Source of the DNA: an uncultured Acidobacteriota bacterium
GTDB lineage: Bacteria > Acidobacteriota > UBA6911
Assembly: GCA_963721405.1 (NCBI GenBank)
Contig: CAVRJA010000014.1
Coordinates: forward strand, 909,691-973,690
Length of the DNA: 64,000 bases
Direction: 5' to 3'
Part shown: positions 24,836-43,435 of the stretch, piece by piece
Layout: each line of letters opens with the position of its first letter
Position numbering within the stretch: position 1 is the first letter of the stretch
The notes under the pieces: generated by a model
Told to the model about the DNA's origin: nothing
Seen by the model: the letters and a program-made list of their open reading frames with translations, nothing else
Databases searched by the model: none
Program-made: the position numbers and the translations under genes

Positions 24836-27400
24836 CTAACGGACGCATCGGAATCCCACCTGTGATGAGCACAAGGTAGGCACGGATCCGCCTCGCCACG
24901 CGGAGCGCAACATTCTCGGGTCGTCATTCCACGCTCCGCCGCGAACCGTCCTTGTGCCGCCGGCCTGCAGATTTTCCCTCCCGTCGTCGCCCCGGTATGG
25001 GTAGGCCGCAAACAGGCCGGACGTCCATTCCGCGACGTTGCCCGACATGTCGTACAATCCCCACGCATTCCGTCGCATAGCATTCCCTGTCGGGAGGGTG
25101 CCGGTGGGGCTGTTGACTCCAAAATTCGGGTTGAACAACGGGCCCCACCAGTAAGCGCTTGTCGTTCCGGCGCGACAGGCATACTCCCATTCGGCCTCCA
25201 GCGGCAGCCGCTTCCCGACCCACCGTGCGTAGGCCAGTGCTGCGTGCCAGCTTACATCCCGGACCGGGTGGAACTCCGTTTCCGCAGGATACAGGTTCCC
25301 CATCCAGGTTTTCAGGTAGTTGCCGTCCACGTAGGGGCCAATCCTCGCGCTCCCCTTCTGCCATTGGGGGTTGGCAAGGACGAACGCCTGGAAGGCGCTG
25401 TTTGTGACTTCCATCGTGTCTATCCAAAAGCCTCTTGTGAAGCTCAGGCTGTGTACGGGCTCTTCGTATTGTGTGTGCCCATACTCCATGGCGGGGCTGC
25501 CCATAAGAAACGTCCCTGGCGGGATCCAGGCCATGGTGCTGCCGTCAGGCGATTTCCAGGTTGTGCCCAGAGCCGGGTTCGCGGGTGGATCGTCGGGATT
25601 CATGAATTTCTCAAACCCATCGGCGATATGGTTGGCCGCGTCCTTCCGGCTGCCGAGATCTTCCCAACCGGGGATTTTGTCCGTGGGCTTTTCGGCCACG
25701 GCTTTGCTTCGGCTCTCCGGGACAGGCTCTTGCCTTCGGACGGCAGAACTGGCAGCGGTGCCTGTAGCGCTCCCCGCACTCGCTTTCGGAGACTCCGGCG
25801 GTGCGGCGGCGGACCCGGCGCCGCTCTGCGAATCGCTGCCGGAGCTGCCGGGGGTAGATTGGGGAACGGTGCTCGAACTCGAGTCGTTCGCATACTCGTT
25901 GAAAATCCAATAGGCGGAAGGAACTGCGAGAACGACCGCGGAGCCCAGAATGAGCAATGCGGTCTTCCATGAACCGCGCGGCTTGGGAAGAGCTTCCCGG
26001 AAAATCTCGGCTTTCGGAGGCTCTTGCCTTTTCTTCATCGCCTCCCGACACCTGGCAAGCGCCTGCGAAAGCATGGTCTGGTTCGGGTCGGCCTGCAGGG
26101 ACTGCACCAGGTAGTTCTCGGCTTCCTGATATTTTCCCTGTGTCAGCAGGGAATCGGCGTGGATCAAGACCGTCTCGGCCCATTGCTTCTTCACTGCCTC
26201 GGCCTGCTGTCGCTCTGATTCCCTGCGCGCCGTTTCCTTCCTTTCCGCCTCCTCTTCCGCGCGGCGCCTGGAGGCCTCCTTCTTTTCAACATCGGTCTGC
26301 CGCTGTCGCGCCAGGGCAAGCGCGTCATTCAAGGCGGCGTCGCCTGGTTTCAGGGACAGCGCTTCTTCCCAGTTGGCGATAGCGTCGGCGTACCTGCCTT
26401 CGTCGAACGCCTTCGTCCCGCGCAACTTCAACAAGGCCAGAGTCGGCGCCAGTTCCGGCTGCCGGCTGTCGTCTTCCTTGCGCTGCAGCTCGTCGAGGAG
26501 TTCCTGGAGGCTGTGAAAGCGGTTTTCGGGTTTCTTCTCGATGCATTTCATGACGATGCGTCTGATCCCGTCGGATGCATCCAGGATCTCGCGAGGCGTC
26601 TTGTGGCGGATCTGTGCGGTGATCTCGCCGGTGATAAAAGGCGGGTCTCCGGAAAGCATCTCATAGAGAACGACACCCAGCGAGTACAGGTCACTCGCTT
26701 CTCCGCTCTCGCCGTCGAGCTGCTCCGGCGACATGTAGAGCAGGGTTCCCGAGTCCTGCTGCGAGGTGAGCCGCGACATCGAATCGCGGCACAGCCGCGC
26801 GATGCCGAAGTCTGCGATCTTGATGGACCCGTCTTTCCCGATCAGGATGTTTCCCGGCTTGAGGTCCCGGTGGACGATCCTCTTCTGGTGCGCGTGCTGT
26901 AGTCCCTTGCAGATCTCGATCGCGATCGCGCGGGTTTCTTCCTCGGGGAGTTTGCCCTTCCTGGCCAGGAGGTGGGCCAGCGATTCGCCTTCCACATACT
27001 CCATGACGAGAAACTTGACGGTCGGCGCGTCCTCGAAATTGTGCACCCGCACCACATTGGCATGCGAAAGCATCATGGAGTGCTTCGCTTCGGCAATCAG
27101 CCGGCGAACGGACCCCGGATCACGACTCAGGAGATCCCGCAGGACCTTGATGGCGACCGGCATCTCCAGTTTCTCGTCGTGGGCAAGATACACCCGTCCC
27201 ATGCCGCCCACTCCCAGTTCCCGGAGGATCCGGTAGCGATTCAGCAGCATCGTGCCCGGAGGCAGGGTCATCTCGGTGGGAGCGGACCTCAGCGGATCCT
27301 GCGGTTCAGAGGTCACCGGGGTTGGGGTGAGGTCGCGGCCACAGCAGGAACAGAAGCGGCCGTCGTCCGGATTACTCGCACGGCAGTAGTTGCAGAACAT
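24836..27400 (-). CDS. Ser/Thr protein kinase with N-terminal zinc ribbon, TPR-like linker, TM helix and C-terminal FGE-sulfatase (SUMF1-like) domain
   Basis: MFCNYCRASNPDDGRFCSCCG. Kinase subdomains (GVGGMGRVYLA, AIKVL, HRDLKPGNIL, DFGIA, SPEQ). TM (ALLILGSAVVLAVPSAYWIF). FGE-sulfatase motifs (WHAALAYARWVGKRLPLEAEWEYACRAG, NAWGLYDMSGNVAEWT, RVVRGGAW). Confidence 0.9.
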   Translation of the reverse strand: MFCNYCRASNPDDGRFCSCCGRDLTPTPVTSEPQDPLRSAPTEMTLPPGTMLLNRYRILRELGVGGMGRVYLAHDEKLEMPVAIKVLRDLLSRDPGSVRRLIAEAKHSMMLSHANVVRVHNFEDAPTVKFLVMEYVEGESLAHLLARKGKLPEEETRAIAIEICKGLQHAHQKRIVHRDLKPGNILIGKDGSIKIADFGIARLCRDSMSRLTSQQDSGTLLYMSPEQLDGESGEASDLYSLGVVLYEMLSGDPPFITGEITAQIRHKTPREILDASDGIRRIVMKCIEKKPENRFHSLQELLDELQRKEDDSRQPELAPTLALLKLRGTKAFDEGRYADAIANWEEALSLKPGDAALNDALALARQRQTDVEKKEASRRRAEEEAERKETARRESERQQAEAVKKQWAETVLIHADSLLTQGKYQEAENYLVQSLQADPNQTMLSQALARCREAMKKRQEPPKAEIFREALPKPRGSWKTALLILGSAVVLAVPSAYWIFNEYANDSSSSTVPQSTPGSSGSDSQSGAGSAAAPPESPKASAGSATGTAASSAVRRQEPVPESRSKAVAEKPTDKIPGWEDLGSRKDAANHIADGFEKFMNPDDPPANPALGTTWKSPDGSTMAWIPPGTFLMGSPAMEYGHTQYEEPVHSLSFTRGFWIDTMEVTNSAFQAFVLANPQWQKGSARIGPYVDGNYLKTWMGNLYPAETEFHPVRDVSWHAALAYARWVGKRLPLEAEWEYACRAGTTSAYWWGPLFNPNFGVNSPTGTLPTGNAMRRNAWGLYDMSGNVAEWTSGLFAAYPYRGDDGRENLQAGGTRTVRGGAWNDDPRMLRSAWRGGSVPTLCSSQVGFRCVR

Positions 27401-27486
27401 GGTTGTGTCCGCAATCGGATGTGGTTGCCCCTAACCTACAGCACCTGCTGACGCGCAGGCAACTGTTTTCGTTCGGACCGTGGACC

Positions 27487-29274
27487 CTAATTCTTCTGTG
27501 CCGAGACCGTGCCCCAGCCCAGGGGGTTTTGAACCTGGCCGGTCATGTGGCGACCGTCGGGTGATACTTCGAGAGTGAGATTTGCCGGGATTGGCGGAGG
27601 AAGGGAATATCCATCCGCCTGATAACTGCCCCGGGAGCAGGTTGCGGTCAGGGTGCGTCCATTCAGGCTGCCCTCACAATCGTACTGCTCGACGATTCGA
27701 CTATGAAGCAGGCCGTCGAGCGCGATCCCCGAATAAGCAGCTAGGCAACTCAACTGCAAACGACTGTTCGCGCCGGTGATCTGCATCAGCCCCCTCACGT
27801 TGGTCGGGGCGACCGTATAAGACCACGCGCCTCCGAGATCCATTGCCGGCGGTGGAGGAGTGATCACCGGGGGAGGAATGCCCGGCGGGGGAGAGTACTT
27901 GGCCCCGGTACCGGCCGATTGAGACAGGATGTACGCGAATATCACCACGATCAGGAGGGCTGCGCCTGAAAGCACGATGATTTTCTTCACCGGCCTCGGA
28001 CGGGGGCCGGGTTCATTCATGAGTGGCGCCGCGCCCGGCGCCTGTTCCCGGCTCATCCTCCCGCGAGCCTCAGCGAGGCACGCCGTCAACCGGGGATGGT
28101 CCGGATGCTGCTGCAGGGCCTGTAGCAGCAAGTTCCGGGCATCCTGAATTCTCTCCTCCCGGAACATGAGCCTTGCCCGTGAGACAATATCATTGACCCA
28201 CGACTCTCCCGCATCTTCAGCCTGCCTGTGTCCCGCTTTCATGAGCGCGCGTTCGGCCTCTTCTGCACCCGGCACCGGGATCGCGGCCATCGCCGCTGTG
28301 GCGGTAGTGCCGGCGAGTTCCTTGCAGAGCTCGCGCGCGCTGGCAAAGCGGTCCTCCGGCTTCTTTTCCAGGCATTTCATGACGATGCGGCGCATCAGGG
28401 GAGACAGCCCCTCGATCTCTTTCGGGGCCTTGTAACGGATCTGAGCCGTGATCTCGCCCGTAGTGAATGGGGGGTCCCCGGAGAGCATCTCGTAGAGCAT
28501 GATGCCGAACGAGTATATGTCGCTTGCTTCCCGGCTCTCGCCATCCAGCTGTTCGGGTGACATATACAGGAGAGTTCCCGAGTCCTGTTGCGAGGTCAGG
28601 CGCGACACCGAGTCGCGGCAGACGCGCGCGATCCCGAAATCCGCGAGTCTGACCGAGCCGTCATTGCCCAGCAGGACGTTCCCCGGCTTCAGATCACGGT
28701 GAATGACTTTCTTCGAATGAGCGTGTTCCAGGCCTTTGCAGATCTCTATGGAGAGGCACCGCGATTCTTCCTCGGGGATTCTCCCTTCGCGGGCGATTCT
28801 GTGGGCGAGGGTTTCGCCTTCCACATATTCCATGACGAGGAACTTCGCCGTTTCCCCGTCCTCGAAATTGTGCAGGCGGATGATGTTCGGGTGCGCGAGT
28901 GTGATGGAGGCCTTGGCTTCGGAAATCAGCCTCCTGACGGAGCCCGGGTCCTGCCTCAGGATGTCGCGCAGCACCTTGACGGCGACCGGCATTCCGAGCT
29001 TCTGGTCCTCGGCCAGGTACACTCGTCCCATGCCTCCGGCGCCCAACTCCCGGACAATCTTGTATCGGCCCGACAGCATGGAACCTGTTTGCAATCCCAA
29101 CTCAGTTGCCGACGAGGCGAGCGCATCCACGGGTCCCGGTCCGTCCCGGCCGGCTCGCATACCGCCGCCGGTTCGTGGGGTCGTGGGCCGCAGTTCGGCC
29201 CTGCAGGAGCAGCAGAAGCGATCTTCTCCGCCGCATTCCGCTCCGCATTGAGGGCAATATCGTGTATCGGTCAT
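27487..29274 (-). CDS. Ser/Thr protein kinase with N-terminal zinc ribbon and C-terminal extracytoplasmic domain
   Basis: MTDTRYCPQCGAECGGEDRFCCSCRAEL. Kinase motifs (GAGGMGRVYLA, HRDLKPGNVLL, DFGIARV). TM (KKIIVLSGAALLIVVIFAYIL). Tandem paralog of the upstream kinase. Confidence 0.9.
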   Translation of the reverse strand: MTDTRYCPQCGAECGGEDRFCCSCRAELRPTTPRTGGGMRAGRDGPGPVDALASSATELGLQTGSMLSGRYKIVRELGAGGMGRVYLAEDQKLGMPVAVKVLRDILRQDPGSVRRLISEAKASITLAHPNIIRLHNFEDGETAKFLVMEYVEGETLAHRIAREGRIPEEESRCLSIEICKGLEHAHSKKVIHRDLKPGNVLLGNDGSVRLADFGIARVCRDSVSRLTSQQDSGTLLYMSPEQLDGESREASDIYSFGIMLYEMLSGDPPFTTGEITAQIRYKAPKEIEGLSPLMRRIVMKCLEKKPEDRFASARELCKELAGTTATAAMAAIPVPGAEEAERALMKAGHRQAEDAGESWVNDIVSRARLMFREERIQDARNLLLQALQQHPDHPRLTACLAEARGRMSREQAPGAAPLMNEPGPRPRPVKKIIVLSGAALLIVVIFAYILSQSAGTGAKYSPPPGIPPPVITPPPPAMDLGGAWSYTVAPTNVRGLMQITGANSRLQLSCLAAYSGIALDGLLHSRIVEQYDCEGSLNGRTLTATCSRGSYQADGYSLPPPIPANLTLEVSPDGRHMTGQVQNPLGWGTVSAQKN

Positions 29275-29346
29275 GACCGGGCGCCTGCAATCGGTGAAAC
29301 TGGAAAATCCGCGATTCTTCGGTCCTCTGCCGCCGCAGCCGGTTTG

Positions 29347-30711
29347 CTATGTTGTGTTGGCCCTCATCACCATCGGCGGGACGGGCTTGAAGCCTTCGTT
29401 CCGGGCGGACAACACATCGATGGCGCACATGAGCCGATCCGGATCGCTCAGGCAGTACTTCGCCTCATCAATACAATCTTTGAATTTTTTCAGAGGTGTC
29501 AGCGTGAAGGTGGTGGAATTCAGCGGCAGCCATGCGCCGCTGGAAACCAGTTTCTCCACGGCCTCGGGATTCGTGACGGCGGCCACAGGACAATTCTGTT
29601 CCACAAGCCAGGCGCCGAAGAACGCGTGCCCGCGGAGCAGAAAAACAAGCGGATTCAATCCCATGCGTTCCACGCAGGCCGCGCACAGCAGCGCCAGGTC
29701 CAGGCAGGTGCCCCGGCGGTGCTTGAGGATCTGTTCCGGGAAAAAGACTTTCTGGGAAAGCGTATTGCTTCCGTCTGGCAGAATTTCCGGCATCTCGAAA
29801 CTCGGCGGCGGATTGATGTAGGTGAGCTGCAGATCCATCTGCAGGGTGAGGAAGAGGGCTTCGAGCATCTGTGTCACCTTCTTGGGATCCCCGGACTGAT
29901 AGCCGTCGAGCGCCGTCTCCCGGTACTCTTTCTTCAGCCGGTCGCGGACGAGCGACACGATCTGCTCCACGGACTCTGAATTGGGTTGAACGAAGCAGGC
30001 CATGATTTCCTGGGCCTCGGGGTGGTAGTACCACTCGTTGTACGCCAGGACCTCCAGGGGATAGGTCTCCGAAATCTGGAGATTCCCCTCGGTGAAGACA
30101 TCGATCCTGAGATTGGCTTTCTCGGCCTCGCGCACTTCCTGCAGACGGGACTTTGTCAGAGGGACGACGATCTTCGTCTGGACGTGGCTCTGTCCGGGCG
30201 GGATGGACGGCAGCGTTTTCTGCCAGGGCTCGCCGTAATCGGTGGCCACCCAGGCTTTGATCAGCACGTCGTTCGCGGCCTCGCTGGAGAGGTTGCGGAT
30301 GGTCAGAGACGGGATGAGCGGCATGCCGCAGTGCGCGAGTGCATAATTGAGGCGGGGCAGCGGCTGAACCTGGAGTTCGAGGTTGTGGGTCGTGACTCGC
30401 CTAAAAGCCGGCGTTGCCTTGAATGTGGTGTCGAGTTTCGGCATTTCGCGGCTCAGGTCGGACAGGGTCGGCAAGCCGGCTCTGAATTGTCTGAGCGCGG
30501 CGCGGCTCTGCTGGAAGGAGCTGTCACGGCCGCTTCGCAGCTTATCGAGCGCGCTGCCGCCTGCGCCGGGAAGTGCGCTCTCCGGAGCTCCCGAAGGCAT
30601 CCCGGAAGTCTGGGGTGGAGCCTGTTTGGGGCGCGGTTCGCCGCAGGAAACACAGAACTTGCCGGCCGGGTCATTCTCGGCGTGGCACTTTGGACAATTC
30701 CAGTTTGGCAT
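29347..30711 (-). CDS. zinc-ribbon protein with C-terminal transglutaminase-like cysteine-protease domain
   Basis: Start at the internal Met giving MPNWNCPKCHAENDPAGKFCVSCGEP. C-terminal TGase-core pattern (RRGTCLDLALLCAACVERMGLNPLVFLLRGHAFFGAWL). Confidence 0.75.
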   Translation of the reverse strand: MPNWNCPKCHAENDPAGKFCVSCGEPRPKQAPPQTSGMPSGAPESALPGAGGSALDKLRSGRDSSFQQSRAALRQFRAGLPTLSDLSREMPKLDTTFKATPAFRRVTTHNLELQVQPLPRLNYALAHCGMPLIPSLTIRNLSSEAANDVLIKAWVATDYGEPWQKTLPSIPPGQSHVQTKIVVPLTKSRLQEVREAEKANLRIDVFTEGNLQISETYPLEVLAYNEWYYHPEAQEIMACFVQPNSESVEQIVSLVRDRLKKEYRETALDGYQSGDPKKVTQMLEALFLTLQMDLQLTYINPPPSFEMPEILPDGSNTLSQKVFFPEQILKHRRGTCLDLALLCAACVERMGLNPLVFLLRGHAFFGAWLVEQNCPVAAVTNPEAVEKLVSSGAWLPLNSTTFTLTPLKKFKDCIDEAKYCLSDPDRLMCAIDVLSARNEGFKPVPPMVMRANTT

Positions 30712-30782
30712 TACGGATCCCCCGTTAGTCTGACATGTGCTCCACCCGGCGACACGGGTGAATGACAAAAAGAACGAACCAC

Positions 30783-30885
30783 GAAGACTCAAAGACCTCA
30801 AAGACGGCCGGTGTGGAGAGCCTTAGAGCAAGGCTGCCCCTGCGGAGGAAGCGACAGCCCCCGCCTTTGAGGTCTTCGAGTCTTT
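30783..30885. promoter_or_regulatory. long imperfect inverted repeat in intergenic or leader region
   Basis: GAAGACTCAAAGACCTCAAAG (30783..30803) pairs with CTTTGAGGTCTTCGAGTCTTTGAGG (30865..30885), with about a 60-nt loop. The flanking GAACCACGAA motif is shared with the 19414 hairpin. Confidence 0.5.
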
Positions 30886-30940
30886 GAGGCTTGGAGGTTC
30901 TCCAATAGTCAACGACTCATGTTGTCGTGCAACACCCTGG

Positions 30941-33061
30941 CTACTCATAAAACTTGTGGCCGCAGTTGTCACAGAACTTGTTTCCCTCCATGGTTTTCAG
31001 ATGGCACTTGGGACAGACGACCACCGAGCCGGCGCCGGTTTGGGACATGCCGGCGGTCTGAATCACGCCTGAGCCCGGGGTGATCACCATGGTTCCGGGC
31101 TGGGCGGAACGAGCGGCAGCCGTGGCCGTGTCGCGCTGGGTGTCCATGCCGCGGTTGTACATCTCCTGCATCATGTGCGCATACTCGCGGCTCATATCCT
31201 TGAGATCGGCGAAGCCCTGGTCCTTTATGGCCAGCATGCGGTCGTAGGCTTTCTGAACCTCCGCCGCGGTGGCGCCCCGGAATTTCTCCTGGAAGGCCTT
31301 AGCGACTTCCGGGCTCTTATCGGCGGCCATGGCAAGAATCTGCTCCTCGGACAGGCCTCGCAGATTTTCGGCGCGCTTCAGGTCGGCCAGCATGGCGGCA
31401 CGGTCCGCGGGGGCCGCCGCGATCAACGCTTCCGCCGACAGGTTCGAGAGCGCCTGGATCCTGGCGAGTTCCTGGGCGTGCCGTTGCGACTCCTCTCTCA
31501 TGGCGATTTCCGACCTGGCCGCCTGCTCGCGCACGGTGCGGTCCGTATCCCAGTCCGCTTCCTCCCTCTTGGTCTGCTTCATCTGCTTCAGGATTTCGAT
31601 GGCTTTCTGGGCTTCGATCGCATCGAGCTCGATCTGAGATAAATGTTCCTTCCTTTCGAGTTCGATCTCCGTTTCCTTTTTCGTCTTTCCGAGCCTGATC
31701 GCCGTTTCCGCTTCGAGCTGCTTCGCGGCCACATCCTGCTGGATCTTCGCCCACTCCGATGCCTGGCGCATCTCCACCTCTTTGCGCTGCGCGGCCAGTT
31801 CATGCTCCAGCTGCGCCATCTCCTCGGCGCGGACGGATCCGGCGACCGTCTGGTTGAGGGAAATCTTGCCCGCCAGCGCGGCACGCGCGAGGTCCGTGTC
31901 CTGCTCGACCTTCAAACGCTGAATCAAATGCGCCCTTGCCAGATCGTGATCCTCCTTCTTTTCGCCGAAATCCTGGGTCAGGACGCGCATTTCCTCGGCG
32001 CGCAGGAGCTTGTCCTTGTCGATGGACTGCAGGAACTTTTCCAGCTCCACCTCGTTGGTCACCTGGTTCATTTCATTGGATGAGACTGCCTTCCGCATGC
32101 GCTCGAACACCCGGGCACGATCCTCGTACACCTCCAGCTGCATGAGCGCCTTGGCCGTCTCCTGGTCCAGCAGCCTGCGATCCAGTCCTGTCTGGGAACC
32201 CTCGCCGGCGAGCTTGGTTTCCAGGTCCTGGGCGTTCAGCCAGTACTCTTCCCTCTTGTCGTTGAGCGCGTCCAGCCGCGGGTGCCGGAAATCGAAAATC
32301 CGGATCTGAATGAACGACAGTCCCTTCCTGTCGAAAGTGGTTGCGAGATGCTGCGCCACTCCCTGCTCCATCTGCTGCTTGACCGCCAGGCTTGTCGACA
32401 GCTCCTGGACCGACCTGCTGCCCACGAACTCCATCAGGCAGTTGCGCAACTCCCCTTCGAGGAAACCATTCAGCTCGTTCAGCGAGTAGTTCTGCCGCCC
32501 CTTCATCATGTTCTCGAAAAACAGGGTGGGATTGTCCATCTGGACGACCAGCCTGCACTCCGCCTCCAGCCTGATGGGATCACGAGTCGTCAGGCCTGCG
32601 AGCGAGAACTGCAGTTCCACGTCGCCCGTATCCACGAGCACGGCCGTCGTGGTCTTGTAATTGAAGATATTCTGGATTCGCTGCAGCACCCCCCCCATGT
32701 CGTATCTGCCGGGGTCGAGGATCCCGGAACAGGCGCCGTTTACGAAAAAGATCGCCCGGGTGCCGGCTTCCACGACGAGGCCCCTCTTGAAGAGCCCCTC
32801 CACATCGTCGACCTCGACCCTTGTGGCGAAGTCTTCAACCCGGCGGGCCCACCGGTTCCCCGTCAGTCTGGGGGCTGCGCTTTCAGAAAGGGGCTTGCCG
32901 CAGTTGCCGCAATACGTCCTGTCTGCAGGGACCGTGGCGCCGCAGCTGCTGCATTTGAGCTCTGATCCGGGCAGGCGCTCGCCACAGTTGCCGCAGTAGC
33001 GCGAGCCCTGCTTGTTTCTGGCATTGCATTTGGGACACTCAACCTGAAATAGGGGAACCAT
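30941..33061 (-). CDS. double-zinc-ribbon + SPFH(band-7)-like + long coiled-coil protein with C-terminal zinc ribbon
   Basis: N-terminus MVPLFQVECPKCNARNKQGSRYCGNCG...CSSCGATVPADRTYCGNCG. SPFH-like segment (AIFFVNGACSGILDPGRYDMGG...TAVLVDTGDVELQF...RLEAECRLVVQMDNP). About 350 aa of heptad-rich coiled coil. C-terminal CPKCHLKTMEGNKFCDNCG. GGAGG RBS. Confidence 0.75.
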   Translation of the reverse strand: MVPLFQVECPKCNARNKQGSRYCGNCGERLPGSELKCSSCGATVPADRTYCGNCGKPLSESAAPRLTGNRWARRVEDFATRVEVDDVEGLFKRGLVVEAGTRAIFFVNGACSGILDPGRYDMGGVLQRIQNIFNYKTTTAVLVDTGDVELQFSLAGLTTRDPIRLEAECRLVVQMDNPTLFFENMMKGRQNYSLNELNGFLEGELRNCLMEFVGSRSVQELSTSLAVKQQMEQGVAQHLATTFDRKGLSFIQIRIFDFRHPRLDALNDKREEYWLNAQDLETKLAGEGSQTGLDRRLLDQETAKALMQLEVYEDRARVFERMRKAVSSNEMNQVTNEVELEKFLQSIDKDKLLRAEEMRVLTQDFGEKKEDHDLARAHLIQRLKVEQDTDLARAALAGKISLNQTVAGSVRAEEMAQLEHELAAQRKEVEMRQASEWAKIQQDVAAKQLEAETAIRLGKTKKETEIELERKEHLSQIELDAIEAQKAIEILKQMKQTKREEADWDTDRTVREQAARSEIAMREESQRHAQELARIQALSNLSAEALIAAAPADRAAMLADLKRAENLRGLSEEQILAMAADKSPEVAKAFQEKFRGATAAEVQKAYDRMLAIKDQGFADLKDMSREYAHMMQEMYNRGMDTQRDTATAAARSAQPGTMVITPGSGVIQTAGMSQTGAGSVVVCPKCHLKTMEGNKFCDNCGHKFYE

Positions 33062-33187
33062 GGCATGCCTCCAAATCGGTCGCCGATAGGGATTTCGCCT
33101 GGATTGCGATGATAACGGCGAAGATTGCTAAGAGAATCTGAACCTCCTCATCAGTGAGGCTTCGTGCCGCACGTTGCGGCGGTTGCA

Positions 33188-34777: not shown

Positions 34778-34808
34778 GAAAAGGTGATCCGTGCCCGCTA
34801 TCGGAGCG

Positions 34809-36026: not shown

Positions 36027-36050
36027 GACTTGATTCTCCAGACTGTGGGA

Positions 36051-36680: not shown

Positions 36681-36707
36681 TCCTTTGTCAACGGAGATGG
36701 ATCCGGT

Positions 36708-37322: not shown

Positions 37323-37330
37323 GATTCCTC

Positions 37331-40048
37331 CTACCGGATAGATCTTTGGATGTAAGTCTTCCCTTTGTGATCGAGAATCTGAAAGCGTCCGCCGGCGACT
37401 TGAACGGCGGCCGCTGCCGACTGGCGATCCAGATTGTGCTCGGCCAGGAAGGAAGCCATCGTCACCGATTCCCCCGGCAATGCCAGCCTGGGGTGATCCG
37501 ACAGCGCCTTTTCGGCGCGGACCCTCTTCTCCCCGCAGGTCTCCGGATCGAACAGGTCACGGAGGGGGCTTTCGTGGCCAAACACGATCCAGGATGTACC
37601 TTCGCCTTTTTCGACCAGGTAGAACAGCGCGTTGCCGCGCGCCTCGGCGTGCCTCTTCCAGTCTTCCGGCCACCCCGTGGGGGAGAAGATCCCGACGCAA
37701 TAGAAGTCCTGGTCCGTGAAAGCCAGGCCGCCGGGGCCCATGATTTCCTGCAGGATGCTATCCGCACCCTGGAGGCCTGCCCCGCCTGGTGCGAGAGCCT
37801 CGAGGTCCCGCCTGACGGCAGCCAGGATGAAGCGGTTCTTCTTTAACAGTCCGGCAGCCAGGGCAAACTGGGTCACGCCGCCGAATGATCTGCGGAAGGA
37901 CTGGCCCTGCGATTTCGGGTCTATTTCGAATTCTTCCCCGCTCCATGGGTGTATCACGCGTCCCGCGTCTCGCACCTTGAGATCAAACCGATTGATGAAG
38001 GTGTCGCCCCAGCAGGGAACCGGCGCCATCGGAGGGGGCTGGGACCGGAGATCGTGCGTCGTCATGCGGGGGAATCCCTCCGCCGTGAGGCCCGGCCTCG
38101 TGGAAGCAGCCGCCTGCGACGGAAGAAAGACCGGGTCCCTCGCTGCCGCGGCGCCCGAAGCCCTGGGCGCCGGCGCCGGGGACATTTCGGGCGTGGAGGC
38201 GTTCTCTTTGTGTCTCTCGCATGAGCGGTGGCCGAGTTGCCAGCAGATCCGGCATATCGGGGCGCCGCATTCGCGGCATTCCCAGACCGGCGAAAACACG
38301 CCGACTTTTGTCAGGTAGCGCTTTCCGCATCGATAACAGACATCGGGCTCGAAGCCCACGGGCGCCGCGGGCGCGGCCCGGGCCGGAACAACTTCCGGCT
38401 CGTCCACCGCAGGCACGGATCTCACCTCCGCGGGCGCCGGAGCGGCGGCTCGCGACGAGTGGATGTGCGCCGGGGCGCGGCGCTGCGCTTCCCGGCCGGC
38501 TTCCGTCATGTTCACCAGTCCATGTCCCACCTGCATGTCACTGGCATACTCCTGGCCGTCGGGGCCTTTCAGGGGACGGCATGCGAAATAAAAAAGGTCG
38601 ACCAGGTCGGCGGGAGTCGGTTCCCAGCCGAGTGAGCGCAGGATTGATTTGAGCAGCACCAGGCAGCCAGCGATCGCCGGCGTTGCCATGCTGGTGCCCG
38701 AGAGGCGCACGTGGCTCTTGTCCACCACTTCGGATGCGTCATAGCCGGCTGTGGAGGATCTGGCGGCGACCACATCCACGCCGGGTCCCACACAGTTGGG
38801 CTTGCCGAATAACGGTGATTCGGGATTTGCGCTCCCCTGAGCGGAAAACGCTGCCAGGAGTCTATTCTTGTCTATGGCGCCCACCGTCACGGCGGTAGGG
38901 CAGTCCGCGGGGACGCAGATCGACTCCGGGTAGGACGGCATCGGGTTGCCGGCGGCCACGCACACCACGGTCCCCTTGCGGAAGGCTTCGGCGCAGGCCT
39001 TTGACCAGATCGATTGTCCGTTCGGCGTCGTATCCATCTCTCCCAGCGAGAGGCTCAGGATGTCGGCCTTCTTCTCTACAACGGCCCACGCCATGCCCCG
39101 GAGAATCGATTCGAGATTGCCGGCCCTACCGGGGGATAAAACCTTGCCGGCGATCAGGCGGCAGCGCGGCGCGATTCCCGAATACCTGCCCCCGAGGGTC
39201 GTGTCGTCGCCGGCTGCGATGGAGGCAACGTGGGTCCCATGCCCGTCGACGTCTTCCTCCCCGCTGAGGGTGAAATCTTGATAGTCCTCGTGGGATATCC
39301 TGGAGAGTGCCGGGTGGCTGCGGTCGACGCCGGTGTCGAGCACGGCGAGTGTGACGTCCTGGCCGAATTGCGCCATGATGTCGGGAGTGACTCCGAGGAT
39401 CTCCCGGCTTTCCACCATCATGGTGGTGACCGCCATTGGAGCGGGCGCCGTTACGGGGGTCAGCGGATCGGCGACGATCCCCGCCTCGGGCAGGCCGGCA
39501 ATCTCGCGCACGAAACTCATCTCCGGCGGGCAGGTGAGCTTTACGATGCCGAACTGCTCCAGGAGCTCTGCCGGCAGAAGGGCGAACCCCTGGGAGACCA
39601 GGCGGCTCTTGAGCTTCTCCATCGCGCCCGGATCCTGCGACATGCACAGGACCGCGGGCCACTTTTCAGCGGGCACCAGGTCGGAATAGCAGCGCATCGA
39701 TCCGCCGGGATCGTTGCGGACATTTTCCGGGGCGGCGATGTCACGGAGGTCGGAATCCAGGTGCTCCTGCAACCTCGAGGCCAGGGCCATTTCACCGACG
39801 CCCTGTCCGCGAAGCCCGGAGACCACGGTCGAATAACGTTCGTAAGCGTCGCCCCGGATTACCCTGCGGTTGATGACACGGTCGACGCGCAGCCGTTCCT
39901 TCTCGTCGTATTCACGCTCCTCGATGCGTTCGTCGATCACCTCGAAACGCAGGGCGGCCTCGGCTTGCTGAGCAATGACCTGGCGCCGCCTCGCTTCCAG
40001 CGACTGCACCAGGAACGAATGAATCTTCGCATCGACTGCATTGTTCAC
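37331..40048 (-). CDS. subtilisin-like serine protease (peptidase S8) with embedded zinc ribbon and large C-terminal domain
   Basis: Catalytic triad blocks VAVLDTGVD (Asp), DGHGTHVASIAAG (His), SGTSMATPAIAG (Ser). Insert CYRCGKRYLTKVGVFSPVWECRECGAPICRICWQLGHRSCERH. Stop overlaps the upstream gene (40045..40048). Confidence 0.85.
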   Translation of the reverse strand: MNNAVDAKIHSFLVQSLEARRRQVIAQQAEAALRFEVIDERIEEREYDEKERLRVDRVINRRVIRGDAYERYSTVVSGLRGQGVGEMALASRLQEHLDSDLRDIAAPENVRNDPGGSMRCYSDLVPAEKWPAVLCMSQDPGAMEKLKSRLVSQGFALLPAELLEQFGIVKLTCPPEMSFVREIAGLPEAGIVADPLTPVTAPAPMAVTTMMVESREILGVTPDIMAQFGQDVTLAVLDTGVDRSHPALSRISHEDYQDFTLSGEEDVDGHGTHVASIAAGDDTTLGGRYSGIAPRCRLIAGKVLSPGRAGNLESILRGMAWAVVEKKADILSLSLGEMDTTPNGQSIWSKACAEAFRKGTVVCVAAGNPMPSYPESICVPADCPTAVTVGAIDKNRLLAAFSAQGSANPESPLFGKPNCVGPGVDVVAARSSTAGYDASEVVDKSHVRLSGTSMATPAIAGCLVLLKSILRSLGWEPTPADLVDLFYFACRPLKGPDGQEYASDMQVGHGLVNMTEAGREAQRRAPAHIHSSRAAAPAPAEVRSVPAVDEPEVVPARAAPAAPVGFEPDVCYRCGKRYLTKVGVFSPVWECRECGAPICRICWQLGHRSCERHKENASTPEMSPAPAPRASGAAAARDPVFLPSQAAASTRPGLTAEGFPRMTTHDLRSQPPPMAPVPCWGDTFINRFDLKVRDAGRVIHPWSGEEFEIDPKSQGQSFRRSFGGVTQFALAAGLLKKNRFILAAVRRDLEALAPGGAGLQGADSILQEIMGPGGLAFTDQDFYCVGIFSPTGWPEDWKRHAEARGNALFYLVEKGEGTSWIVFGHESPLRDLFDPETCGEKRVRAEKALSDHPRLALPGESVTMASFLAEHNLDRQSAAAAVQVAGGRFQILDHKGKTYIQRSIR

Positions 40049-40755
40049 GGCATTTTGCTCCCGTGCCTCAGAGGCACAACCTTCCCTTCCTCCTGATAAC
40101 TCTCCACCAGATCCAGAGCGACGATCCGGCGCAGCATTTCAAAGGAAACCAGGGCGACCACGCCGGACACCATGGGCAGCATGCGGACGCTCTCATAGGA
40201 CTGCCCGCACTTCGTGCACTTCAAAGCCCGGTCCTGCTGCGGCGAAGGCAAGGCCGACCCGCAGGAACGGCACGGAATCCCGGAAGCTTGCGGCCGGCCC
40301 TCGACCGTTGCCAGGGGGAATCCGTCACGGGCCGCGATTTCCGCCAGCCTGGCGAAAAACGCCTCGCGATTGGAAATCGAAAGGTAGAAGAGCAGGGCAG
40401 GGTGGCGAAGGAGCGTTGCAAGATCCTTCCGAAGCGTTTCCATGGGCAGCTCACCGCGGATGGCGCCGTGGGGAACGGCTGCCCGGCTCAATCCCCGGAC
40501 CATCGTCGTCACAGGGTCCGCAGGCCTGGCGCTGCCCGCTTCGGCCGATGGCGCCCGGAAGGACTCCGCGGCCTCGGAGTAGGATATCATCCGCTTCCCG
40601 CCGGGCGCATGGATGGCGGGCAGGGCCATGAGCCTCCTGAATTCGGCGCTGAAGCGGGCGGCCGAGCCCAGGTGGACGCGCGGATTGCCGAATTCGCGCA
40701 GGAACCCTCCCATGCGTGTGGCCACGGCGTCGAGGTGTCGGTCCAGTGTTTCCAT
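40045..40755 (-). CDS. hypothetical protein with C-terminal zinc ribbon (CRSCG...CTKCG)
   Basis: 236 aa. Translationally coupled between the second MIT-AAA ATPase and the S8 protease. No family recognised. Confidence 0.5.
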   Translation of the reverse strand: METLDRHLDAVATRMGGFLREFGNPRVHLGSAARFSAEFRRLMALPAIHAPGGKRMISYSEAAESFRAPSAEAGSARPADPVTTMVRGLSRAAVPHGAIRGELPMETLRKDLATLLRHPALLFYLSISNREAFFARLAEIAARDGFPLATVEGRPQASGIPCRSCGSALPSPQQDRALKCTKCGQSYESVRMLPMVSGVVALVSFEMLRRIVALDLVESYQEEGKVVPLRHGSKMP

Positions 40756-40761
40756 CAGGCC

Positions 40762-41907
40762 TCAGCTCCCTTCGGCGAATTTCCGGTAGCGCTCCAGCAT
40801 GGACTCGCTGACCGACGGCGGCACCTCCCGAATGGCAGTTTCCAGATCCTCGAGCGTCAGAATCGTCTCGGCGCCGGATCCGATCTGCCGGCGGAACGGA
40901 AGATCGGTCGCCTTGGTGCAGACGCCCGCGATGTCGGCGCCGCTGTACCCGGCCAGTTTCTCCGCCAGGACACGGTAATCGACGGACGGTTCCATGGGGA
41001 TGCCGTCGAGATTGAACTGAAGTATCTGCTCCCGGGCGGCGGCATCCGGAAGGCCGACATAGAACTTCTCTCCGAAGCGCCCGGTGCGCATCGCAGCCTC
41101 ATCCATGTCCCACGGCCGGTTAGTGGCGCCCATGAGCAGAATGCAGTTCGTCTTGGGATCGAGGCCGTCCACCTGCGAGAGGAACTCGGGGACGACGCGG
41201 TTCATCACCGTCGACTGCCCGCCCCGCTTGCCGACCAGGGCTTCCGTTTCGTCAAGGAATATCACTGATATGGGGTAACGGCGGGCGACCTCAAACAGGC
41301 GCGCGAGGTTCTGTTCGGCCACACCTACCCACTGCGACATGATGTTGGAGCTCTTCACGTTCAGGAACTGGGCATCCAACTCGGTGGCGATGGCTTTGGC
41401 GATCATCGTCTTCCCCGTGCCCGGCGGGCCGTAGAGCAGAATCCCTCCCCCGGCTTTCTTCTTGAAGCGGGTTGCGGCTTCGGGATGACGGAACGGGTAG
41501 ATGACCCTGAGGTTGATGGCTTCCTTGACCTCGTTCAGCCCGGCGATCTGGTCGAAGCGAACATCGGGTTTTTCGGAAACGATCCATTTGTTTTCCGGGG
41601 TGAGGTCGGCATCCGGGTCTTTGCCTGAGCCGGCCCGTTCGGGAGAGGCCGCCGGCGCCGTCCCGGGAGGGGATTTCCTGCCTTTGAGCGACATGGCGAG
41701 ATCGCACAGATGGCGGGCCTTCTGCTGCCGGATCTTTTTCAGCTCATTTTCCGATTCCAGGGCGGCCTTGAGCAGGTATCTGGCGGCCATCAACAAGTGA
41801 TACCGGGCCTGCGGGTGATCTCCGATCTTAAGGTAATCAAGGCCCTGATCCCTGTTCTTTCCGTATTGATCCAACAGGAACTGCATAGAGATTCCTCGTG
41901 CCGTCAA
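40762..41907 (-). CDS. MIT-domain AAA+ ATPase, Vps4-like (paralog 2)
   Basis: MIT-like N-terminus (LDYLKIGDHPQARYHLLMAARYLLKAALESENELKKIRQQKARHLCDLAMSLK). Walker A GPPGTGKT. Walker B FLDETEA. ATNRPWDMDEAAMRTGRFGEKFYVGLPD. Confidence 0.85.
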   Translation of the reverse strand: MTARGISMQFLLDQYGKNRDQGLDYLKIGDHPQARYHLLMAARYLLKAALESENELKKIRQQKARHLCDLAMSLKGRKSPPGTAPAASPERAGSGKDPDADLTPENKWIVSEKPDVRFDQIAGLNEVKEAINLRVIYPFRHPEAATRFKKKAGGGILLYGPPGTGKTMIAKAIATELDAQFLNVKSSNIMSQWVGVAEQNLARLFEVARRYPISVIFLDETEALVGKRGGQSTVMNRVVPEFLSQVDGLDPKTNCILLMGATNRPWDMDEAAMRTGRFGEKFYVGLPDAAAREQILQFNLDGIPMEPSVDYRVLAEKLAGYSGADIAGVCTKATDLPFRRQIGSGAETILTLEDLETAIREVPPSVSESMLERYRKFAEGS

Positions 41908-41933
41908 CCGGAAACGTCGGCGCCGTTGCCACT

Positions 41934-42536
41934 TTACTTGCCGCTCTTTTCAATCTCCTTCTGGATCGCCGAAAGATCCTTGTCGATCTCTTCGTCGATG
42001 CCTGATCGTTCCTCGTGAGCGACCTCTTCCTCAAGCATCTTGTCGATGTCGGCGTCGCTCACCAGCTGGCCCTCGGAACTGCCTTCGTAGTCGAACATCG
42101 ATTCGGATGTCATCTCCAGGAATGTGTCTACCCGCTCTTCGAGGTTCTCCGCCTGAGACATCGCCTTCTCGAAGTTGACCTGCGTCTTGGCCATGTCCGT
42201 CGCGCCAAAGACCTCGGAAATTGACTTCGAGAGCGAGTTCATCGCGTTGGCGAACTCAAAGTGGCCCTCCGCCTGTTCTTTGATCTGCACGGCGGACTCG
42301 AGGGCAAGCATCTGCCGCTCGAGCCGGACCTTGATCGTCGCCGTCTTCTTGATTGCCTTCTTGAGGAACTCGTATTGATTGTTCCAGCCGAGCTTTTTGG
42401 CCCGTTTTGCCTTCTCGATGTAGTCGGATTCGTGCTTGGTATTGGCAGCGATCTGGCGTTTGATCTGAGTGACGGCCTTCCGGATCTGAATGTTCCGTTC
42501 GATGCGCCGTTCCTCCTTGGACTTGAAGAGACTCAT
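41934..42536 (-). CDS. Snf7/ESCRT-III-like coiled-coil protein (paralog 3, CHMP1/Did2-like layout)
   Basis: MSLFKSKEERRIERNIQIRKAV... has a basic N-terminus. MAKTQVNFEKAMSQAENLEERVDTF resembles CHMP1 alpha4-5. Acidic C-terminus with DIDKMLEEE...IDEEIDKDLSAIQKEIEK (MIM1-like). Confidence 0.7.
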   Translation of the reverse strand: MSLFKSKEERRIERNIQIRKAVTQIKRQIAANTKHESDYIEKAKRAKKLGWNNQYEFLKKAIKKTATIKVRLERQMLALESAVQIKEQAEGHFEFANAMNSLSKSISEVFGATDMAKTQVNFEKAMSQAENLEERVDTFLEMTSESMFDYEGSSEGQLVSDADIDKMLEEEVAHEERSGIDEEIDKDLSAIQKEIEKSGK

Positions 42537-42556
42537 GGGACCTTCCTTTCCCCCTC

Positions 42557-43435
42557 CTAATGACTCATCCTTTCCACGATACTTGCAATGCGATAGTTGT
42601 AGTAACCGCTTCCCGCCAGGGCGAGGATCAGGATGCCGGCGGTCCAGATCGTCGGGATCCAGAAGCCGGTCAACAGAAGAGCCAACAGCATGTCCACGAT
42701 AGTGTAGCCGAGAAGGGTTGCCAGGTTCAGGATGTTCGACTCCTCGGAGATCAGCCGGCGGATCAGCGGGATCGTCAGCAGAGGCAGCAGCAGCGCAAAA
42801 ACGATCCAGACGAAAATCCTGCGTCCTTTGGAGCTGTCCGCGATGCGTGCGCGCCAGTAGGAACTCAGGATCAGGCTGCCGCCCATTTCTTCCGCAAACG
42901 TCTGGGCGAAGATCGCCTGGCCGGTCGCGCGCTCCGCGACGCGCAGTTCCAGCTTGAGCGTGCCTGTTCTCTCCTTCACATCGTATTCAGGAATCTCGCC
43001 AAACAGGACCAGGTCGACGCCGATCCGGCGTGCGGCAGCGACTGCGTCTTCAAGCCGGGTGACGGAGATGCCCTGGCCGCCGAACTCGCGCAACAGCTTT
43101 CCCAGAAACGGCTCCTCCAGGACCCGGAACTCGCCGGAAGCGGCGATCTTTTCCCGCAGCAGCTTGGTGACATTGCCCTGCCGGTCACCGGCGAGCTCGA
43201 GGACTGCGAGGCTGGGGACCCCTTCCTTTTTCGGCAAGTCTCCTGCGACCTTTGCACACAGCCTCTCGGCGAGATTCCGTTGCATGAATCCCCGGCCATC
43301 TTCTGCCGGGGCAATCAGGTGATATCCCTGGTAGAACATGGAAAGGCCCAACCCGAAGTAGAGAATGGGCTTGACCAATGACCTGCCCAGGAATGAATAC
43401 AACGGGTCCATGATTCGCAGCTGCACCATGGTCAC
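42557..43435 (-). CDS. polytopic membrane protein, first gene of the minus-strand array
   Basis: N-terminal TM pair, a soluble middle domain and three or four C-terminal TM helices. An AT-richer 250-bp region upstream (43436..43690) probably carries a promoter. Confidence 0.55.
   Translation of the reverse strand: MTMVQLRIMDPLYSFLGRSLVKPILYFGLGLSMFYQGYHLIAPAEDGRGFMQRNLAERLCAKVAGDLPKKEGVPSLAVLELAGDRQGNVTKLLREKIAASGEFRVLEEPFLGKLLREFGGQGISVTRLEDAVAAARRIGVDLVLFGEIPEYDVKERTGTLKLELRVAERATGQAIFAQTFAEEMGGSLILSSYWRARIADSSKGRRIFVWIVFALLLPLLTIPLIRRLISEESNILNLATLLGYTIVDMLLALLLTGFWIPTIWTAGILILALAGSGYYNYRIASIVERMSH

Follow-up and report, generated by a model that had tools for sequence, protein, structure and literature searches.

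Vps4-plus-ESCRT-III systems have been treated as archaeal and eukaryotic only (Makarova et al. 2024, PMC10936438), and a 2025 review describes a Vps4-like ATPase as apparently absent from bacterial PspA systems (PMC7619361). The pairing of Snf7-type ESCRT-III with Vps4-like ATPases, called absent from bacteria by reviews, is present in the gene cluster described here, of which we found no account in the literature searched. Its closest analogues are the archaeal ESCRT loci linked to SPFH proteins and kinases and the PspA–YdjGHI operon of Bacillus. Amongst the archaeal loci, those of the 'Meth_adaptin' type encode an SPFH-coiled-coil-zinc-ribbon protein and the 'main' and 'FHA' groups encode Ser/Thr kinases; like this cluster, archaeal ESCRT loci bring together Snf7-type subunits, a Vps4-like ATPase, SPFH with a coiled coil and zinc ribbon, membrane-associated kinases, FHA domains and winged-helix proteins (PMC10936438). 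The present cluster differs from them in being bacterial, in having two distinct ATPase paralogues and in its S8 and transglutaminase (TGase)-like add-ons. Where the archaea have adaptin-like or CdvA-like adaptors it has an alpha/beta-plus-winged-helix domain, and two of its three small subunits are not recognisable as ESCRT-III by sequence.

The PspA-YdjG-YdjH-YdjI operon of Bacillus subtilis resembles the cluster in that it, too, pairs the genes of an ESCRT-III-superfamily member and an SPFH protein; its other products are YdjG, with a zinc ribbon, and the membrane protein YdjH. In the cluster, however, the family of g2 (genes are numbered as in Table 1) matches Snf7, with PspA_IM30 not among the Pfam families matched, and there are Vps4-like ATPases, a winged-helix adaptor and kinases. 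PspA of B. subtilis needs the SPFH protein YdjI for membrane recruitment (as cited in the passage on this operon in PMC10936438). The passages of Ravi et al. 2024 (PMC11237479) on such contexts report occasional bacterial Vps4-like ATPases and Snf7/PspA homologues beside AAA+ ATPases, read as ATP-dependent membrane remodelling. The contexts given there differ, in that a TPR-6TM protein takes the place of snf7 or there are links to ABC transporters and OmpA/PBPb proteins, and those passages describe no cluster in which two ATPases and several small subunits occur together with SPFH, kinases and a winged-helix adaptor. With the eukaryotic ESCRT-II/ESCRT-III/Vps4 system the cluster appears to share a winged-helix protein gene 5' of the small-subunit genes, acidic subunit tails with an amphipathic helix and, in g8, an MIT-AAA layout. 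It is without ubiquitin, ESCRT-0 and ESCRT-I, and its adaptor has one winged helix whereas ESCRT-II has them in tandem.

The locus and its gene products

The cluster lies in a soil Acidobacteriota genome, in a stretch of 64,000 nucleotides that we refer to as the window and to whose first letter all positions refer. The 13 co-directional minus-strand genes described in a sequence-only reading of this DNA were all recovered as open reading frames, together spanning ~19 kb (Table 1). From g1 to g9 the spacing is −4 to 31 nt; beyond g9 it is 126, 139, 72 and 86 nt in gene order to g13. The three long distal junctions of 86–139 nt listed previously do exist; at 29274/29347 there is one more, of 72 nt, that had been left off the list. 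The upstream region (43436–43692) is AT-richer as described, with a GC content of 0.545 compared with 0.614 both in the island and in the whole window. Cys4 zinc-ribbon motifs, which had been claimed for at least six products, occur in 6 of the 13 (shuffled sequences averaged 0.175 and never exceeded 1), and g10, g11, g12 and g13 are each headed by the same type of zinc ribbon.

Table 1. Genes of the cluster and two neighbouring genes, with positions in the window
Feature	Position	Strand	Basis
g1 membrane protein	42557..43435	-	ORF; sub-cutoff CsgG
g2 Snf7-family (ESCRT-III) protein	41934..42536	-	family-level Snf7 match
g3 AAA+ ATPase	40762..41907	-	AAA, AAA_lid_3, Vps4_C
g4 small zinc-ribbon protein	40045..40755	-	CxxC...CxxC motif
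g5 N-terminal part, S8 subtilase + Cys-rich zinc module	38012..40048	-	Peptidase_S8
g5C, C-terminal domain of g5 (aa ~680-905), alpha/beta + winged helix	37331..38011	-	
g6, 204 aa, fold unproven	36708..37322	-	position between adaptor and g7
g7 helical protein, predicted ESCRT-III-like fold	36051..36680	-	
g8 Vps4-like AAA+ ATPase, MIT-like N-terminus	34809..36026	-	AAA; N-terminal profile matches
g9 N-terminal hydrophobic helix, SPFH, coiled coil, C-terminal domain	33188..34777	-	Band_7
g10 double zinc ribbon, SPFH, long coiled coil, C-terminal zinc ribbon	30941..33061	-	DZR, Band_7
g11 zinc ribbon + ~330-aa domain, TGase/papain-like Cys...His motif	29347..30801	-	ProA N-terminus match
g12 zinc ribbon, Ser/Thr kinase, TPR, hydrophobic segment, extracytoplasmic domain	27487..29274	-	Pkinase
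g13 zinc ribbon, Ser/Thr kinase, TPR, hydrophobic segment, FGE-sulfatase-like domain	24836..27400	-	Pkinase, FGE-sulfatase
DZR protein, convergent, possible associated component outside the 13 genes	23703..24707	+	DZR E=2.9e-5
FHA-like protein, possible associated component outside the 13 genes	47649..49004	-	orthologue positions

The S8 protease, the SPFH proteins and the two zinc-ribbon kinases of the earlier description were all found. In g5 the Peptidase_S8 match (E=1.7e-41, aa 229-475) contains the D/H/S motifs and is followed by the Cys-rich zinc module at aa 571-602. As judged by profile matches g9 and g10 are both SPFH/Band 7 proteins, g9 with a Band_7 score of 23.9 bits that is barely over the 23.6-bit cutoff and g10 with one of 47.2 bits (E=3.5e-12) in addition to its DZR match (E=2e-13). 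Pkinase is matched together with TPR in both g12 (E=7e-54, with HRDLKPGN and DFG motifs) and g13 (E=3e-54), the latter also matching FGE-sulfatase (E=6.5e-50). In g1 four hydrophobic helices can be seen by eye, one on the N-terminal and three on the C-terminal side of a weak CsgG-like domain slightly under the cutoff (E=3.6e-4, 20.3 bits).

For g11, assigned as TGase-like, the Cys motif (RGTCLDLA...RGHAFFGAW) coincides with a match to DUF553, a TGase-like family, but the match is sub-threshold (E=0.029); PDB sequences gave no match to g11. A match to the NCBIfam model 'anti-phage ProA' (NF058533) has E=6.2e-75 and 252.7 bits with a cutoff of 1500 bits. As it is confined to positions 1-317 of the 1903 in the model, g11 is not a ProA orthologue, the two having one domain only in common.

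ATPases and small subunits

Both g3 (E=9.6e-36) and g8 (E=3.7e-35) match AAA and carry Walker-type GPPGTGKT and hhhhDE motifs, and at the level of sequence the single classical AAA cassette of Vps4 and CdvC was found. The likely true start of g3 is the ATG at 41886, its orthologues beginning at residue 8. It has a single AAA cassette, a helical domain at the N-terminus and a helix resembling Vps4_C, with matches to AAA_lid_3 and to Vps4_C (22.1 bits, cutoff 21.3); Vps4_C does not exceed the cutoff in g8 and is weak in the orthologues from loci L019 and L101. Pfam MIT was detected in neither protein, and g3 gave no MIT signal. With the N-terminal profile of g8, eight of the ten PDB matches were the MIT domains of VPS4A/B, aligned over the whole domain with a marginal best E of 0.014. 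On these domain matches g8 is an ATPase in which AAA is combined with an MIT-like domain, and g3 one in which it is combined with a match to Vps4_C. The two had previously been called Vps4-like, which agrees with AAA in both, Vps4_C in g3 and the MIT-like N-terminus of g8, but not with the CdvC cutoff. CdvC is the top NCBIfam model for both (214 bits for g3, 178 bits for g8); as CdvC equivalogs they were rejected, lying far below the 650-bit cutoff with the CDC48 and PAN models scoring close behind.

Of the three small proteins proposed to be Snf7-like, g2 is borne out by its family profile, g7 has a predicted ESCRT-III-like fold and g6 is without ESCRT-III support. Pfam gave nothing above threshold for the window copies of g2, g6 and g7, and the PspA_IM30 profile was matched neither by these nor by g2-family members. 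Pfam Snf7 (PF03357) is matched by 14 of 25 members of the g2 family (best E=1.8e-8), and the family profile finds yeast Snf7 (5fd9/5fd7, E=4.4e-4) and also CHMP2A; the window g2 on its own aligns with model positions 4-134 of 171 at E=0.27. Similarity to Snf7 is thereby found for g2 only, at the level of the family and not of the window copy alone. The protein begins with the motif MSLFKSKEE, and the MGLFKSKEE-type N-terminus of its family resembles the N-termini of CHMP proteins.

For g7, whose likely true start is 36671, the ESCRT-III likeness is one of predicted fold alone; no similarity to ESCRT-III was detected at the sequence level, the fold matches sit among many generic helical bundles and a Foldseek search returned nothing significant. 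Pfam, PDB and profile-profile comparison gave no ESCRT-III match for g6, which is unproven as an ESCRT-III subunit. It is found together with g7-like genes in 15 of 18 long loci (see below) and lies 5' of them wherever the gene order is resolved. The g2, g6 and g7 families show no significant similarity to one another. In all three an acidic linker followed by a C-terminal amphipathic helix is visible, the tail of g2 ending in this helix, and we infer that these helices may be MIT-binding MIM tails.

Conservation of the cluster

By comparing ~40 related loci (numbered with the prefix L), 18 of them long, the cluster could be divided into three layers: a conserved core, recurrent partners (kinases and g1) and lineage-specific add-ons (the TGase-like protein, and the S8 domain with g4). 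Among the 18 long loci, with families assigned by iterative search of a small pooled ORF set in which coiled-coil proteins may drift, and with kinases counted in fetched flanks of up to 10 kb, AAA ATPases were present in 17, the adaptor and g6 in 15 each, SPFH proteins in 13, g1 in 10, kinases in 7, g11 in 4 and S8 in 1.

It is g5C that forms the conserved core adaptor, the N-terminal S8 part of g5 being accessory to the fusion. The S8 part is missing from L013, L014, L016, L017 and L031, and where it is absent g5C occurs as a standalone protein. In different loci the adaptor domain is fused to S8, to a kinase (L016, Bryobacterales) or to MerR, and the winged-helix domain is always encoded just 5' of g6/g7. 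Also accessory is g4, which is restricted to L012, L015, L022, L028 and L033 and occurs only where g5 carries S8; the S8 domain and g4 are sporadic, in some Acidobacteriota only.

The g5C-g6-g7-g8 block is kept in Terriglobia-like, Vicinamibacterales and Bryobacterales MAGs, and g2-g3 is also kept in these loci except in the Bryobacterales. Most of those with enough flank retain g9/g10-g11 (g9 orthologues are in L013, L014, L017, L028 and L031), and from Terriglobia-like to Vicinamibacterales the order g9-g10-g11 is kept with 46-66% identity for g10 and g11; orthologues of g11 are confined to Acidobacteriota loci. The core is found too in a second, divergent clade with one member labelled Planctomycetota, where g2 is ~50-57% identical and the order is SPFH, adaptor, g6-like, two g7-like genes, g8-like, Snf7 and g3-like. 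SPFH homologues of g10 occur in the divergent cluster types, and 9 of 12 divergent partner proteins of ~609 aa match Band_7 (best E=4.7e-8). The core set is accompanied by an SPFH protein in both of these clades, which are very divergent.

Several lineages have kinases, in varying number and position: in L020 they lie within the cluster and in L005, L018 and L077 next to it. In L018 a g13-type architecture adjoins the Snf7/AAA pair. Orthologues of g1 adjoin the module in L014, L016, L017, L005, L018 and L020. Flanking genes are constant in some pairs of loci (an amidohydrolase in L014/L017, GlyRS-GidA in L019/L101), GC is uniform across the locus, no mobile-element genes were seen near the core and no relatives of the cluster were found in the viral contigs searched. 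The gene-order check called for earlier has a divided outcome: the ESCRT-like module and SPFH are syntenic far beyond the source genome, but the 13 genes do not stay together as a fixed set, since S8 and g4 are patchy, g11 is Acidobacteriota-only and the kinases are variable. For the integrated system proposed by the sequence-only reading, the core/SPFH synteny and the kinase-adaptor fusion of L016 speak in favour, and the variation of S8, g4, g11 and the kinases against.

Possible functions

ATP-driven membrane remodelling or repair under kinase control would seem the best reading of the island, and we incline, by a little more than an even chance, to the view that it encodes ESCRT-like machinery with which a bacterium remodels or repairs its membranes, supplemented by regulators and enzymes that differ between lineages. 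In such a machine SPFH oligomers of g9 and g10 would label or encircle an area of the cytoplasmic membrane, where the winged-helix adaptor g5C would nucleate a mixed g6/g7/g2 polymer, as ESCRT-II or CdvA nucleates ESCRT-III. Both ATPases would bind the subunits by their acidic, amphipathic C-terminal tails, and the ATP-powered unfolding or extraction of subunits would turn the polymer over and constrict, seal or bud the membrane. The receptor-type kinases g12 and g13 may monitor extracytoplasmic conditions and control assembly through phosphorylation, which would probably be read by the FHA-like neighbour. The common N-terminal zinc ribbons may bring proteins to one site, and in this lineage the S8 domain on the adaptor and the TGase-like enzyme may process or cross-link subunits or cargo. 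Going further, the cluster could be a genuine bacterial ESCRT, with a winged-helix nucleator, Snf7-type polymer, Vps4-like ATPases and SPFH scaffold, vertically inherited in Acidobacteriota and the clade with the Planctomycetota-labelled member and performing reverse-topology scission or repair under Ser/Thr-kinase control; this we regard as doubtful.

It seems unlikely that the cluster serves in stress or as an anti-phage (conflict) system. In such a system kinases or SPFH proteins would detect infection or damage to the membrane, a response such as dormancy, abortive infection or proteolytic signalling would be carried out by the protease, the TGase-like enzyme and the AAA+ ATPases, and the Snf7-like proteins would be PspA-like damage sensors or stabilisers and not act in scission. 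The core domain of g11 does match the 'anti-phage ProA' N-terminus (E=6e-75), and the AAA ATPase g3 and S8 peptidase g5, with g4 between, recall IetAS (PADLOC IetA 1e-32, IetS 1e-8), but the curated cutoffs are widely missed (ProA 253 against 1500 bits, IetA 114 against 510, IetS 19.7 against 900). IetAS (IteA/IteS) itself was rejected, NCBIfam IteA scoring 114 and 105 bits against 510 and IteS 19.7 against 900. The kinases match PADLOC PD-T4-6 models, though such kinase and AAA matches are generic for those folds. Enzymatic add-ons that differ by lineage (S8, Peptidase_C1 in L018, TGase-like) are typical of conflict systems; here, however, they are missing from most loci, and the stable chromosomal context in two clades, the uniform GC and the lack of any mobile genes or viral relatives seen also argue against such a role.

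Nor do we think it at all probable that two or three independent units (the ESCRT-like/SPFH core, the abundant Acidobacteriota kinases and an unrelated TGase-like gene) lie side by side in this lineage and share an orientation by chance. The distal gaps of 72-139 nt would leave room for separate promoters, another kinase is encoded elsewhere in the window (58484-61408), and S8, g11 and kinases occur in 1, 4 and 7 of the 18 long loci, respectively, the kinases varying in position and number; but chance would leave unaccounted for the fusion of kinase and adaptor in L016, the kinases inside or beside the cluster in four further loci, the conserved g9-g10-g11 order at 46-66% identity for g10/g11, and the zinc ribbon of one type on g10, g11, g12 and g13. 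Highly improbable is a cell division or budding system analogous to archaeal Cdv. As in Cdv there are several ESCRT-III-like paralogues and Vps4-like ATPases, and a related cluster is found in a lineage of MAGs that includes a member labelled Planctomycetota, but this link is a single label, Acidobacteriota have FtsZ and no cell-division genes adjoin the cluster in the window annotation.

The two neighbouring genes listed in Table 1 may encode associated components. Of the FHA proteins reported earlier near the cluster, Pfam finds no FHA in the window protein, and the FHA match of its Vicinamibacterales orthologue is 'faint'. In Vicinamibacterales L015 the orthologue of this gene follows g11 directly, and in L014, L022 and L028 it lies 5' of g1; the DZR protein has orthologues 5' of g2 (L013) and between g8 and g9 (L017).

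A conserved core within the island

The island (minus strand, 24836-43435, genes g1 to g13 counted from its upstream end) was proposed in a sequence-only reading to be one integrated system of ESCRT-like proteins, SPFH scaffolds and kinases. Conserved synteny supports this for a core but not for a unit of all thirteen genes, as the S8 domain of g5 and the zinc-ribbon gene g4 are a sporadic insertion and the transglutaminase-like g11 is limited to Acidobacteriota. The core consists of an SPFH protein, a winged-helix adaptor, the small proteins g6 and g7, the ATPases g8 and g3, and g2; kinases and the membrane protein g1 are frequent partners. We read it as a bacterial ESCRT-like/SPFH system with a previously unrecognised winged-helix adaptor.

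All thirteen ORFs of that reading were recovered in place. Gaps between genes are -4 to 31 nt across g1-g9 and then 126, 139, 72 and 86 nt, and the GC content of the upstream region (43436-43692) is 0.545 vs 0.614 for both the island and the whole window. Pfam detects AAA in g3 and g8, Peptidase_S8 in g5, DZR in g10, Band_7 in g10 and, at the borderline, g9, Pkinase and TPR in both g12 and g13, and FGE-sulfatase in g13. Recurrent Cys4 zinc ribbons, claimed for at least six products, are borne out, with the motif in 6 of 13 against a mean of 0.175 in shuffled sequences. Around the island lie ordinary metabolic genes without mobile-element signatures. A promoter and terminator scan gave counts at or below chance and so no indication of operon structure.

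Matches in named genomes all came from Acidobacteriota MAGs (Terriglobia, Vicinamibacterales and Bryobacterales). Three loci in which g7 is 74-84% identical (L013, L014 and L017) share the order (g1)-g2-g3-[standalone protein of ~240 aa]-g6-g7-g8-g9-g10-g11-(kinase), with a DZR protein where g1 would be in L013; S8 and g4 are absent from all three. The standalone protein corresponds to residues ~680-905 of g5. This makes the 'S8 protease' a fusion protein, conserved in an adaptor domain that is uncharacterised, has no Pfam family and is found elsewhere alone or joined to a Ser/Thr kinase or a MerR/HTH_17-like N-terminus. Vicinamibacterales loci, 60% identical, carry a kinase, g3, g4, g5 with its S8 domain, g6, g7, g8 and, further on, g10, g11 and an FHA-like gene. 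In the Bryobacterales locus (L016) g1 is followed by a single kinase-adaptor fusion protein and then g6-g7-g8; this fusion ties phosphorylation to the core.

Distant relatives of g7 and g2 led to more divergent loci. One (L005) holds adaptor-like, g6-like and g7-like genes, a 211-aa protein, g2-like and g3-like genes, an SPFH-like protein of 619 aa, a g1-like gene and a kinase. Another (L020) has the MerR-adaptor fusion, g6-like, g7-like and g8-like genes, Snf7, three kinases, a g3-like gene, Band_7, a g1-like gene and a kinase-FHA protein. The third (L018) combines a g8-like gene and Snf7 with a kinase bearing FGE-sulfatase, a zinc-ribbon protein, a papain-like protease, a g1-like gene and a second kinase. 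The papain-like Peptidase_C1 in this locus, which has no S8 gene, suggests that the system recruits proteases of one fold or another interchangeably.

A metagenome scan for the g2 family returned 80 loci and a second, dominant architecture: SPFH (~609 aa), adaptor-like (~279 aa), g6-like, two g7-like genes, g8-like, Snf7, a ~145-aa protein and g3-like. It was found by iterative searches (jackhmmer) of a small pooled database of locus ORFs, where assignments could drift for coiled-coil proteins; for SPFH and Snf7, Pfam served as an independent check. The SPFH region of g10 aligns with the N-terminal 230 residues of the ~609-aa proteins, and Band_7 was matched in 9 of 12 (best E=4.7e-8). An SPFH gene is present in all second-type loci whose upstream sequence reaches 8 kb or more. 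Among the 18 loci spanning 15 kb or more, with genes assigned by the same iterative searches, AAA is present in 17, the adaptor and g6 in 15 each, SPFH in 13, g1 in 10, a kinase in 7, g11 in 4 and S8 in 1. Two second-type loci (L019 and L101) share downstream GlyRS-GidA, which points to a stable chromosomal position. The 90%-identity cluster of the L101 Snf7 includes one protein labelled Planctomycetota. Small conserved proteins of ~145 aa and ~210-220 aa also occur in L019 and L101.

Positions of features in the window and in related loci (L-numbers)
Feature	Position	Strand	Remarks
Adaptor domain	37331-38011	-	C-terminal ~225 residues of g5; alpha/beta + winged helix
Kinase-adaptor fusion	L016:7599-9359		Ser/Thr kinase joined to g5 C-terminal domain
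MerR-adaptor fusion	L020:5604-7115		MerR/HTH_17-like N-terminus
Papain-like Peptidase_C1 gene	L018:14882-16153		Snf7/AAA pair is followed by a kinase; this gene lies three genes further downstream
Second cluster type	L019:3520-12844; L101:666-7659		Beside the same TPR, GlyRS, GidA and glycosyltransferase genes
Double-zinc-ribbon protein	23703-24707	+	Convergent, just outside the island
Protein called FHA	47649-49004	-	G-R...S-R...N-G motifs visible by eye
Ser/Thr kinase with PD40/WD40-like beta-propeller repeats	58484-61408	+	Elsewhere in the window
Octamer GCAATCGG	27411-27418, 29287-29294, 43526-43533	+	Three island intergenic regions; variant near 33075

ATPases and small proteins

The two ATPases are ~30% identical to each other. 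Both have separate orthologues in the divergent clusters, and their duplication is therefore old. The best NCBIfam model for both g3 and g8 is CdvC (214 and 178 bits vs a cutoff of 650), with CDC48 and PAN scoring close behind. Vps4_C is matched in g3 at 22.1 bits vs a cutoff of 21.3. While Pfam detected MIT in neither protein, VPS4A/B MIT domains made up 8 of 10 PDB matches to the N-terminal profile of g8, aligned over the whole domain though with a best E of only 0.014; the corresponding g3 profile gave no PDB match and no MIT signal. The motif after the AAA sensor is LDDAILSRFQKRVYIPLP in g8 and R-x-G-R-F in g3, which we take to be Vps4/katanin-like and Cdc48-like, respectively, as leads only.

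None of g2, g6 and g7 individually exceeded a Pfam threshold. Distant members of the g2 family do carry Pfam Snf7, which was matched by 14 of 25 aligned members (best E=1.8e-8); PspA_IM30 did not appear among the matches to these 25. Against the PDB the g2-family profile found yeast Snf7 at E=4.4e-4, and its top four matches were all ESCRT-III proteins. Taken together, these family and profile matches identify g2, as judged from sequence, as a Snf7-type protein. The g7 family is small, with 62 representatives in 1.84 billion proteins. Its AF2 model (pLDDT 75.6) comprises a short helix at the N-terminus, a long hairpin and three further short helices, with terminal helices on a flexible tail; Foldseek gave no significant match for it, with ESCRT-III superfamily entries frequent in the top 50. 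Neither g6 nor g7 profiles matched ESCRT-III in the PDB, leaving g7 without a sequence link to ESCRT-III, and g6 showed no detectable relatedness to any known protein in Pfam, the PDB or profile-profile comparisons. Profile-profile comparisons found no significant similarity among the g2, g6 and g7 families, the best being g7 vs g2 (P=0.0016 over ~50 collinear residues).

Proposed mechanism and alternatives

Homology and synteny alone are established here, and from them we infer every step of the most economical mechanism, an ESCRT-like cycle. SPFH assemblies would define a site on the membrane, where the small subunits would form a mixed polymer nucleated by the adaptor; the two ATPases would turn this polymer over via their N-terminal domains, and receptor kinases would set the timing of the cycle.

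Some features suggest instead a defence or stress system. While the core of g11 (29347-30801, minus strand) matches the N-terminal positions 1-317 of the 1903-position NCBIfam model 'anti-phage ProA' (E=6e-75), it misses the curated cutoff by a wide margin and is not assigned to ProA, of which a literature search found no description. Likewise, the AAA ATPase g3 and the S8 peptidase g5 lie two genes apart with g4 between them, as in IetAS, but the curated IteA and IteS cutoffs, also missed by wide margins, rule out membership, and the PADLOC matches to AAA and kinases are generic. The enzymatic add-ons do differ between lineages, whereas the core is chromosomally stable and g2 has no relatives in viral contigs. 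The distal genes may also be partly independent units, given how common kinases are in this phylum; the beta-propeller kinase elsewhere in the window shows the same for this genome, which weakens arguments from adjacency.

The ESCRT-like/SPFH reading bears on a stated gap. Makarova et al (2024; PMC10936438) treat Vps4 with ESCRT-III as archaeal and eukaryotic systems missing from bacteria, and a 2025 review (PMC7619361) describes a Vps4-like ATPase as apparently absent there; a conserved bacterial cluster would therefore matter. The archaeal loci of the former contain SPFH-coiled-coil-zinc-ribbon proteins, kinases and FHA domains, whereas the present cluster is bacterial; a Bacillus PspA-YdjI link is also noted there. 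Vps4-like ATPases transferred to bacteria are noted in passages of Ravi et al (2024; PMC11237479), as are some Snf7/PspA + AAA+ operons, whose contexts, as given in those passages, differ from ours. Our literature search found no description of this cluster; its coverage was incomplete and an earlier description elsewhere is possible. The pairing in question is that of a Snf7-family protein with MIT/Vps4_C-type ATPases, the winged-helix adaptor and SPFH scaffolds in a conserved bacterial cluster. If correct, it would offer a model in bacteria of how ATP drives ESCRT-III dynamics, and new data on whether such machines spread by transfer or from a common ancestor.

Neighbouring genes and local sequence features

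The double-zinc-ribbon protein beside the island may belong to the system: in L013 an orthologue is encoded upstream of g2, and in L017 one is found between g8 and g9. In L017 the orthologous ORF has a further match, to the FGE-sulfatase domain of g13. The protein called FHA in the sequence-only reading did not match Pfam FHA, although G-R...S-R...N-G motifs can be made out by eye; its orthologue directly follows g11 in Vicinamibacterales and lies upstream of g1 in several MAGs.

On the coding strand, the octamer GCAATCGG precedes the g12 and g13 start codons by 11-20 nt. It was rejected as a special motif: it is not enriched window-wide, with 8 occurrences observed vs 5.1 expected, and related Acidobacteriota loci lack it in their intergenic regions. 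The longest-ORF starts of g3 (TTG 41907) and g7 (GTG 36680) are probably too far upstream, as orthologues begin at ATG 41886 and ATG 36671, respectively.
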